From the sequence record OQ626344: a stretch of DNA of 64,000 nt, one strand, 5' to 3'. Origin of the DNA: Escherichia phage S127 BCL3. Positions 23,738-24,469 of the stretch are shown here, piece by piece; position 1 is the stretch's first letter, and the number at the start of each line of letters is the position of its first letter. Under the pieces are notes generated by a model, which was given only the letters and a program-made list of their open reading frames with translations, ran no database searches and was not told the origin of the DNA. The translations under genes were made by a program, and so were the position numbers.

Positions 23738-24095
23738 GATTTTTATCCTCTCTGTTAATTAGTGTGGTGTTGTTCACCTTGCGAGGATAAGAATAACAGA
23801 ACTATCCGAGCTGTCAACCATTAGTTAGAATTATTTTTTGGGCAGAATTCTCCAGCCGTCGCCCCTGCCAGGTTAACCATCATTTTTTCGTACTCTTCTT
23901 TATGTTCCAACGCTCCCGCCATAGCCTTTTCAACCAGGGCGGTAGCCTCAGCGTCATTAATCGCTACATTTCCAGGGGGATCATATTACTGTACCTCCTC
24001 TTCAGTTGTTGCCTACCCTATAGCATAGCCCTGCCAGGCTGGCCCCGCCAGGTTGCAACGGTTAGCGCATCAGGTTAGAATTTTTTTGAAAAGTG

Positions 24096-24124
24096 TTGAC
24101 AGCGGCCCCGCCAGGTGGCACAAT
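24096..24124 (+). promoter_or_regulatory. plus-strand sigma70-like promoter (TTGACA-17-CACAAT) in intergenic hub
   Basis: consensus -35; weak -10; points opposite to flanking genes. Confidence 0.35.
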
Positions 24125-24139
24125 ATACCTATCGAAAGG

Positions 24140-24177
24140 ACGGCAGGCACCGGTGACGGGGGAGACAACCACCGGGG
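24140..24177. repeat. conserved GC-rich element, copy 1
   Basis: ACGGCAGGCACCGGTGACGGGGGAGACAACCACCGGGG; related copies at 24285 and 14932. Confidence 0.55.
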
Positions 24178-24195
24178 ATGGGCGCTGCATAAAAT

Positions 24196-24214
24196 GAGAA
24201 CGGTTATCATTATC
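24196..24214. promoter_or_regulatory. Fur-box-like palindrome A
   Basis: GAGAACGGTTATCATTATC, 15/19 to Fur consensus with a perfect right half. Confidence 0.45.
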
Positions 24215-24239
24215 ATTTAAAAATTTATGCAAAAAATCC

Positions 24240-24270
24240 TTGCTTTCTTTGTCCTGTGTGATACTATAAT
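24240..24270 (+). promoter_or_regulatory. plus-strand promoter-like element (TTGCTT-19-TATAAT)
   Basis: perfect -10; spacer longer than optimal. Confidence 0.3.
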
Positions 24271-24284
24271 AACAAGCCGGGGCA

Positions 24285-24316
24285 ACAGGGGCCGGGAGAC
24301 AATCACCGGGGGTGCC
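24285..24316. repeat. conserved GC-rich element, copy 2
   Basis: GGGAGACAATCACCGGGGGTGCCCG core shared with copy 1. Confidence 0.5.
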
Positions 24317-24331
24317 CGTTATTCTGCAAAC

Positions 24332-24350
24332 GAGAATGATTATCATTCAA
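24332..24350. promoter_or_regulatory. Fur-box-like palindrome B
   Basis: GAGAATGATTATCATTCAA, 15/19 to Fur consensus; core is a near-perfect palindrome. Confidence 0.5.
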
Positions 24351-24469
24351 AATTCTAAATGAGAACTTTTCGCATTTCATAAATTTAGTTAGCATGCTAA
24401 TTACCTACCGTGACAATTCTATATAAAATAATACCTCCTTAAATATTTCCATATACAAATTTTAAAAAT

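Follow-up and report, generated by a model that had tools for sequence, protein, structure and literature searches.

The window analysed here, a stretch of 64,000 nucleotides from Escherichia phage S127 BCL3 (OQ626344), is on the evidence of its sequence a Vequintavirus, i.e. an rV5-like virulent myovirus. A DNA search with the region 23700-25000 returned 222 matching phage records, headed by Escherichia phage B9-1 (98%) and followed by ECP26, FV3 and rV5. This region contains a hub in which two tandem plus-strand units, each formed by a promoter-like site, a GC-rich element and one or more palindromes resembling Fur boxes, precede a block of three iterons. The genes flanking the hub all lie on the minus strand, and their proteins match only entries of 'unknown function' in Pfam and PHROGs. 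The 271 bp of the tandem units show 95-100% identity in more than 110 genomes, above that of their surroundings, and in a comparison of four Vequintavirus genomes positions 24100-24600 form the most invariant local stretch of the region.

An earlier note on this DNA had described the hub as free of genes, and the description holds. The sole open reading frame over the two units (24062-24346, minus strand, 94 aa) is a homologue of the annotated rV5 ORF198; it is not conserved and is judged spurious. That the conservation of the hub reflects a minus-strand protein gene of this type (92-109 aa) is very improbable indeed, even though rV5, Gotham and other phages carry the annotation of a hypothetical protein and four genomes contain an ORF of that length. 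In the close relatives L090 and L054 the frame is broken, and no two genomes agree in its C-terminus, for which reasons ORF198 is rejected as a gene. In addition, two conserved 18-mers are read in different frames of ORF198, its ATG lies inside a palindrome and is not preceded by a Shine-Dalgarno sequence or other ribosome-binding site, and many phage records annotate nothing at this position. GC-rich stretches yield long stop-free frames by chance in all of the genera.

The two plus-strand promoter-like sites that had been claimed at 24096 and 24240 are both present and have hexamers of the sigma70 type. P1 (24096-24124; TTGACA-17-TGgCACAAT) has an extended -10 and a 10/12 match, carries CCCCGCCAGG in its spacer, and is identical in rV5, Gotham and the relative L023; its start would fall near 24131. 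P2 (24240-24267; TTGCTT-16-TGaTACTAT) has the same geometry as the orthologous promoters of six other genera and a perfect TATAAT close by (24265-24270), and it would start near 24274. A possible upstream promoter, P0 (24053-24081, plus strand; TTGCAA-17-TAGAAT), matches at 9/12 positions and has CCCCGCCAGG motifs upstream of it (repeat family D2); the evidence for it is weak. Across genera the promoter hexamers are kept in position, 16-18 bp apart, while the spacer sequences vary freely, as would be expected of working promoters. The literature search found no published transcriptome of any rV5-like phage. A weak minus-strand promoter-like site at 24380-24352 overlaps the boxes and is not conserved in other genera. 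No plus-strand intrinsic terminator was found in 24100-25000, and the GC elements are followed by A-rich sequence, with no GC hairpin and U run.

Downstream of each promoter lies the GC element, for which two copies in the hub and a third inverted copy elsewhere had been proposed; all three were confirmed. Two of the matches to the 18-mer GGGAGACAAYCACCGGGG, at 24160 and 24294, lie on the plus strand and the third, at 14937-14954, on the minus strand (three in the window vs 0.06 expected from shuffles), and a profile HMM finds exactly three copies of the element in the 64 kb. Its core is AGACAAYCACC. Copy 1 (24143-24190, plus strand) has the core AGACAACCACC at 24163-24173, and copy 2 (24274-24325, plus strand), the best HMM match in the window, has the core AGACAATCACC at 24297-24307. 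The third unit (14918-15010, minus strand) consists of a promoter, TTGTAA-16-TGtTATACT (15010-14983), followed by a GC element with its core at 14951-14941 and an 11-bp closing stem; no Fur-type box lies downstream. The next promoter, TTGACA-17-TAACAT (14877-14905, minus strand), with CCTGCCAGG in its spacer, would drive the gene at 14822-14550. This succession of terminator, promoter, element, next promoter and gene (15020-14877 in the window) is the layout of the copies outside the hub.

A sigma70 promoter was found upstream of the GC element in all 20 of its 20 distinct contexts, which come from at least five phage groups, with 24-38 nt between the end of the -10 and the core; the -10 is extended in 14 of the 20, and the mean promoter score upstream of the element is 9.65 vs 6.17 for random 80-mers from the window. 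The contexts include two unrelated phage contigs, L111/L112 (46.8 kb, with at least four copies) and L135 (168 kb); L112 has no DNA match among GenBank phages. Throughout, the orientation of the element relative to the promoter is strictly kept. The genes downstream of the non-hub copies are unrelated to each other, and no common gene was found among them. These non-hub copies have no Fur-type boxes, which indicates that element and boxes are separable modules. Judged from its contexts, the GC element is a promoter-proximal, orientation-specific sequence motif, acting either as RNA or as DNA. It has no long match or complementarity in the E. coli genomes, and a role as antisense or mimic of a host sequence is rejected on that account. 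Its resemblances to the rrn leader (AGACAAUC), to the acceptor end of tRNA-Pro and to the RfaH ops element are short. A G-quadruplex was also rejected, as four G-runs occur in unit 2 only and are not conserved.

The covariance and fold analysis that the earlier note had called for lends no support to a conserved fold of the GC element, since RNAalifold gives 0 consensus pairs and covariation is no better than in shuffles. Of the cells in the proposed closing stem, 67% form pairs vs 32-46% in slid controls, with covariation equal to that of the shuffles. Only four of 21 copies show stronger pairing between their 5' and 3' arms than shuffled controls do, and the arm pairing is significant in the c3-type copies and L126 alone; closing stems of 8-11 bp, including G-U pairs, are found in c3-type and Certrevirus copies. 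A conserved hairpin around the GC core is thus not supported by RNAalifold, by the arm-duplex test or by the pair counts, and the fold z-scores are -1.7 and +0.1. Neither the window nor its relatives have a relevant match in Rfam 15 at E-values up to 10, and a known RNA family or riboswitch is rejected. A tRNA or tRNA remnant in the hub is likewise rejected, as ARAGORN finds none there or elsewhere in the window, and the 'tRNA-Met/Ile' annotated at the homologous place in a Klebsiella phage record was not reproduced by ARAGORN. In its fixed position a short distance downstream of a promoter, in its several copies per genome and in its occasional place ahead of genes, the GC element recalls lambda nut/boxB, HK022 put and qut. 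It differs from them in lacking sequence similarity, a conserved hairpin and an identified N- or Q-like protein, and in that its two hub copies have no downstream genes.

Past the GC elements lie the palindromes. The matches to the Fur consensus that had been claimed at 24196, 24332 and 12254 were recovered, the first with 16/19 and the other two with 15/19; at no more than four mismatches to the Fur 19-mer the window contains five matches vs 0.48 expected. Additional sites were found at 24359, 12118 and 12234. Fur-type operator 1 (AAATGAGAACGGTTATCATT; 24192-24215, centre 24202) holds the 16/19 match and an overlapping second site shifted by 6 bp (24201-24215). Operator 2 (AAACGAGAATGATTATCATTC; 24328-24348, centre 24338) reaches 16/18 against the single-dimer consensus of E. 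coli, and operator 3 (AAATGAGAACTTTTCGCATTT; 24357-24377, repeat family D5) follows it by exactly 29 bp. A second cluster of Fur-type operators (12116-12270, with sites at 12118, 12137, 12234 and 12252) is located in a large gene-poor region at 10.3-13.6 kb. A perfect 12-bp palindrome, TTAGCATGCTAA, at 24389-24400 is inside a block conserved in the relative L010.

The consensus of 28 distinct sites, drawn from seven phage genera, is AAATGAGAATgATTCTCATT, an inverted repeat of 7-1-7 (9-1-9) geometry; the unrelated viral DNA scanned has about seven such sites per Mb. Neighbouring palindromes are often exactly 29 bp apart, e.g. at 24330 and 24359 in the window and at 2602, 2631, 2660 and 2689 in phAPEC8. 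In all genera a constant 22 nt (20 in unit 1) separate the GC core from the first box, and this fixed distance suggests that core and box belong to one assembled unit. The box centres lie at about +72 relative to P1 and at +65, +94 and -72 relative to P2. Unlike in classic Fur repression, the hub boxes do not overlap the -35, the -10 or the start of P1 or P2.

The hub is common to phages of Klebsiella, Salmonella, Cronobacter, Pectobacterium and Serratia and to phAPEC8-like phages. Homologous regions were compared from a Klebsiella Mydovirus, phAPEC8, PVP-SE1, Cronobacter PBES02, Pectobacterium CB7 and a Serratia phage. All of them have, on one strand, a promoter followed by a segment here called RNA-A, a second promoter followed by the GC element, two to four palindromes and three iterons. 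RNA-A is a highly conserved, GC-rich segment of about 95 nt downstream of the first promoter, with a predicted structure. This window lacks it; in the Vequintavirus hub a second copy of the GC-element unit takes its place. The features are conserved across seven genera, and by this comparison the hub is an ancient module of the whole phage subfamily and no quirk of this genome.

Fur boxes are a textbook control element of bacteria, and the phage palindromes share with them the inverted-repeat geometry, the flanking AA/TT and half-sites of the form AATGA..AAT. The sole difference between the phage consensus and that of the enterobacteria, AATGATAATnATTATCATT, is position 4 of each half-site, where the phages have G and the enterobacteria T. 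This G is selected in the phages (24 of 28 left halves), and the enterobacterial half-site TTATCA occurs in 12 of the 28 sites. Scored against the E. coli single-dimer consensus, the sites of the window reach 13-16 of 18 and the best of the relatives 17; the highest-scoring sites retrieved from promoter regions of E. coli K-12 have 15 (fhuA, in which one half is ATTCTC), 16 (the cirA side of the lysP intergenic region) and 15 (fepA-fes). A single-dimer 7-1-7 geometry and an M9 model have been described for Fur (PMC2189734).

A scan for the exact phage-consensus 19-mer across 100,044 bacterial species genomes found it at no fewer than 120 loci, often several per genome, and the taxa among the matches listed include Beta-, Gamma- and Alphaproteobacteria, Actinomarina and Firmicutes. 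Two sets of ten neighbour genes starting within 250 nt of listed sites were sampled; 17 of these 20 genes have Pfam domains, and 15 of the 17 belong to iron or metal homeostasis. The first set, picked by size and distance, consists entirely of iron or metal genes (10/10): four TonB-dependent receptors, an FbpA/SfuC-like binding protein, an ECF sigma factor, a FUR regulator, an FTR1 permease, ZnuA and a rubrerythrin. The second set followed the order of the list; seven of its genes have Pfam domains and five of the seven are iron-related, including two FUR regulators and an Fe2+ transport protein, while the other two are Hsp33 and DUF3325. In Pelagibacter, sfuC, which represents a gene class carrying the site, is the strongest marker of iron limitation (PMC2864753). 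In bacteria, then, genes for TonB-dependent receptors, for iron transporters and for Fur itself have the exact phage consensus upstream, and by this consensus the palindrome is identical to an operator of bacterial iron genes. The doubt raised earlier, that the matches might be no better than those of AT-rich palindromes, is removed by the excess over expectation in the window and by the bacterial iron-gene loci. Their consensus geometry, their scores and their bacterial neighbours identify the palindromes, as far as sequence can, as Fur-family operators and no generic AT-rich palindromes.

The phage sites also differ from bacterial Fur boxes. They lie in the gene-free hub of a virulent phage, downstream of promoters (+65 to +72), prefer G at half-site position 4, and form single-dimer sites in arrays phased at 29 bp, as opposed to sites overlapping at 3 or 6 bp. 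Around the exact site in bacteria the prevailing spacings are 16, 22 and 38 bp, not 29, and the GC core was found beside none of 122 bacterial sites. No Fur homologue was detected in Vequintavirinae by tblastn with E. coli Fur as the query, which makes host Fur the most economical binder. Host Fur is thus the most likely binder of the palindromes, and expression of the hub may respond to iron.

Beyond the operators, the three iterons (24461-24650; 52-75 bp; repeat families D1 and D3) each have an A/T tract and end in (G/T)(A/G)TCGAG(T)AC, at 24514, 24566 and 24631. Those of the relatives measure 65-75 bp and end in CGATCGAG(T/A)AC. The iterons are conserved across genera at the DNA level and show no RNA consensus structure; with their A5T6 tracts they look like a platform for protein binding. 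The rV5-like relative phiTE expresses a functional non-coding RNA, pseudo-ToxI (Blower et al. 2012, PMC3475682), likewise from an intergenic gap. That locus is at phiTE_202/203, whereas the hub corresponds to phiTE_078/079, and it contains 36-nt ToxI-like repeats to which the iterons are unrelated. For these reasons, and given the missing consensus structure, the hub as a type III antitoxin mimic and the iterons as RNA repeats or antitoxin mimic are both rejected.

Promoters without genes, adjacent AT-rich DNA and repeated sites are features of replication origins, and all are present here. At the primary origin of T7, the tandem promoters 1.1A and 1.1B are followed by an AT-rich region, and the lambda ori has an array of operators beside A/T tracts. 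With transcription-activated origins (T7 primary, ColE1 RNA II, T4 oriF/oriG and lambda ori) the hub shares tandem promoters that face AT-rich repeats and give no protein product, and with lambda ori in particular a palindromic site array beside A/T tracts. Because tandem geneless promoters leading into AT-rich repeats recall the T7 primary origin, a role of the hub and its iterons as a replication origin is plausible, though we would sooner expect it to fail than to hold. An rV5-like phage further shares with T7 the type of its replisome, formed in rV5 by a T7-like PolA and a gp4-like primase-helicase, and the origin of rV5 is unknown (PMC3606486). The hub departs from origins of the T7 type in that its promoters are of the host sigma70 type, its GC motif also occurs at ordinary intergenic sites, and no skew signal accompanies it. 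The turning points of the cumulative GC skew lie near 10 kb and 50 kb and not at 24 kb; in rV5 the skew changes only where the direction of transcription switches (PMC3606486).

The explanation that we favour, with a little less than even confidence, is that of a conserved non-coding transcription hub gated by a Fur-type operator and possibly serving as a replication origin. P1, P2 and possibly P0, all of the host sigma70 type, would fire rightward against the surrounding leftward early genes. Each would yield an untranslated transcript carrying in its first 50 nt or so the G-rich motif, whose core would fall around +23 to +43. An operator of the Fur family (7-1-7 inverted repeat, consensus AATGAGAATnATTCTCATT) follows 20-22 bp past the core; of the three operators in the hub, the second and third are separated by exactly 29 bp. 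At about +65 to +72 from each start, a bound dimer, for which the iron sensor Fur of the host is the likeliest candidate, could gate or roadblock rightward transcription after the G-rich leader and before the iterons, and the iteron block would act as a nucleoprotein platform, possibly a replication origin. Points that run against this explanation are the position of the boxes off the -35 and -10, the G at half-site position 4, the atypical 29-bp array, the missing skew inflection, the lack of a plus-strand terminator and the separability of GC element and boxes.

Some of the same points could be accounted for if the palindromes were operators or initiator sites of a conserved dimeric phage protein not homologous to Fur, their likeness to Fur boxes being one of geometry alone, and the hub an origin or an early or middle control region with no link to iron. 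The systematic G and the exact 29-bp spacing, atypical for bacterial Fur clusters, would suit such a protein, the arrays adjoin iterons as in origins of the lambda type, and the flanking genes, all of unknown function, provide candidate binders. We nevertheless regard this as unlikely, albeit the most serious of the alternatives, given that bacteria make wide use of the exact consensus 19-mer as an operator in front of iron genes and that the enterobacterial TTATCA half-site persists in the phage sites. The operator is, moreover, nearly invariant across very divergent phages, as it should be if it follows a host protein that is itself strongly conserved. Less probable again is that the arrays are a decoy for Fur, in which at least six boxes per genome, multiplied by hundreds of replicated copies, would titrate Fur and derepress host iron uptake for the benefit of phage iron enzymes, e.g. 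ribonucleotide reductases. Multicopy Fur boxes on a plasmid are known to titrate Fur, which is the basis of the FURTA assay; each genome has two clusters of good Fur-type sites, and the boxes are not placed so as to repress any obvious promoter. Set against such a decoy are the abundance of Fur, the probable curtailment of host transcription during infection, and the fixed core spacing with exact 29-bp phasing, which points to a structured local complex rather than a mere sink; we consider it quite remote.

Between these two in probability, and rather doubtful, stands the proposal that the units are independent small-RNA genes, whose G-rich RNA would act in trans, e.g. against a host defence or on an mRNA of the host, or would serve as antitermination leader or 5' stabiliser, with the palindromes either functioning as RNA hairpins or being incidental. 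Each copy of the GC element has its own promoter, including the L111/L112 and L135 copies without boxes, and the orientation to that promoter never changes. The closing stems with G-U pairs in c3-type and Certrevirus copies, the structured-looking RNA-A at the position of unit 1 in relatives, and the functional non-coding RNA that phiTE expresses elsewhere in its genome (PMC3475682) also agree with this proposal. It is weakened by the lack of an Rfam match, of RNAalifold consensus pairs and of covariation beyond that of shuffles, by fold z-scores of -1.7 and +0.1, and by cognate arms that pair better than chance in only four of 21 copies; nor is there a terminator or any long complementarity to E. 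coli genomes.

A literature search found no report of this hub or of conserved Fur-operator arrays in the genomes of virulent phages; the parts are of known kinds, and their combination and phage setting are new. A broader proposal, which we put forward as tentative and do not expect to hold in full, is that Vequintavirinae and phAPEC8-like phages have co-opted host Fur. Phased operator arrays would gate the entry of non-coding transcription into an iteron block acting as replication origin or as master control region, so that lytic development senses host iron, or would act as a Fur sponge, and AGACAAnCACC would represent a new class of leader motif shared with unrelated phages. Phages of the rV5 type are widely used in biocontrol and therapy against E. 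coli O157 and Salmonella, and they meet iron-limited hosts in gut and tissue. If Fur gates the hub, replication or early regulation of these phages would depend on the iron status of the host, with a bearing on therapeutic efficacy. The hub also offers a concrete candidate for the missing origin of rV5-like phages, and two unclassified conserved non-coding elements are defined, the GC motif and, in the sister genera, RNA-A. In a scan of viral contigs, a 16-mer of the GC element was also seen in an unrelated prophage gene.

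The plus-strand promoter P2 (24240-24267), which lies in the gene-free hub of S127 BCL3, is flanked by two palindromic Fur-type operators, operator 1 centred at 24202 (about -72) and operator 2 at 24338 (about +65). The distance between them is 136 bp, or about 13 helical turns, and by analogy their arrangement around P2 recalls that of GalR, a loop-forming repressor. Such a P2-flanking pair occurs only in the duplicated layout of Vequintavirus. A repeated motif, CC(C/T)GCCAGG, is found upstream of promoters and within promoter spacers, with copies at 23864, 24030, 24044 and 24107 on the plus strand and at 14899 on the minus strand. 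The promoters concerned are P1 (24096-24124), the one after the third copy of the GC element (the conserved motif behind P1 and P2) and possibly P0 (24053-24081). The strict form CCSGCCAGG has five matches in the window against 0.28 expected, and the motif may be a site of another regulator.

Fur-type sites form another cluster (12118, 12137, 12234 and 12252) within 10300-13600, a stretch of about 3.3 kb with few genes, where plus- and minus-strand gene blocks converge and which probably corresponds to the box called 'non-coding' in the rV5 paper. Short repeats are numerous there, namely CAAATATCAC, CCTGAAGAG and CTGTTTACGC. The CAAATATCAC motif also adjoins the iterons in Certrevirus hubs (L126 and L127), and a single ancestral hub may therefore have been split by inserted genes into the two Vequintavirus hubs.

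The hubs of sister genera (L123 to L128) contain RNA-A, a GC-rich segment of about 95 nt (CGCCACCCCACGGCGAAAAGGCGGGGC...GGAAGGTGGATCGCCGGTAG) with its own promoter upstream, at 2320-2400 in L123, 2388-2470 in L124, 1840-1925 in L125, 1835-1920 in L126 and L127, and 1840-1920 in L128. It is nearly unchanged in five genera, has a predicted structure with one covarying pair, and matched no Rfam family. In these other genera, a direct repeat, TGTAAAGAnnTGTAAAGA, stands immediately 5' of promoter B, their second promoter (L123 2414-2436; L124 2482-2500; L125-L127 about 1930-1950), and has the form GTAAA-N5-GTAAA, as in CpxR sites. Neither RNA-A nor this repeat is present in the S127 BCL3 window. 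Outside the rV5-like group, the GC element also occurs in the phage contigs L111, L112 (IMGVR_UViG_3300027123_000194) and L135 (IMGVR_UViG_3300046810_000101), directly 3' of a promoter there too, and one such contig carries at least four copies in 15 kb, in both orientations. Fur-type boxes are absent from all of these contigs, and no GenBank phage matches L112 at the DNA level.

Gene 25282-24953 probably terminates at a hairpin at 24885-24925 (AAGGAGGA-N14-TCCTCCTT), which has a T run behind it on just the minus strand and marks the right boundary of the hub; conservation is poor over 24650-24800, including rV5 ORF199. In the small minus-strand gene at 23821-23994, a homologue of Gotham F10B_0201 and rV5 ORF197, a 1-nt deletion within an A-run cuts the ATG off from the remainder, and rV5 carries different indels; either gene decay or sequencing errors would account for the disruption.

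Some database records are doubtful. In L123 (OY978796.1), tRNA-Ile and tRNA-Met are annotated at 2420-2573, exactly on the promoter, GC element and Fur-type boxes; this annotation looks wrong or shifted, because ARAGORN predicts no tRNA at that place. The coliphage hub is also matched by seventeen records that carry the label 'Campylobacter phage', three of them (MG065662, MG065690 and MG065647) with 96-97% identity to that of S127 BCL3, and these records are probably mislabelled or contaminating rV5-like phages.
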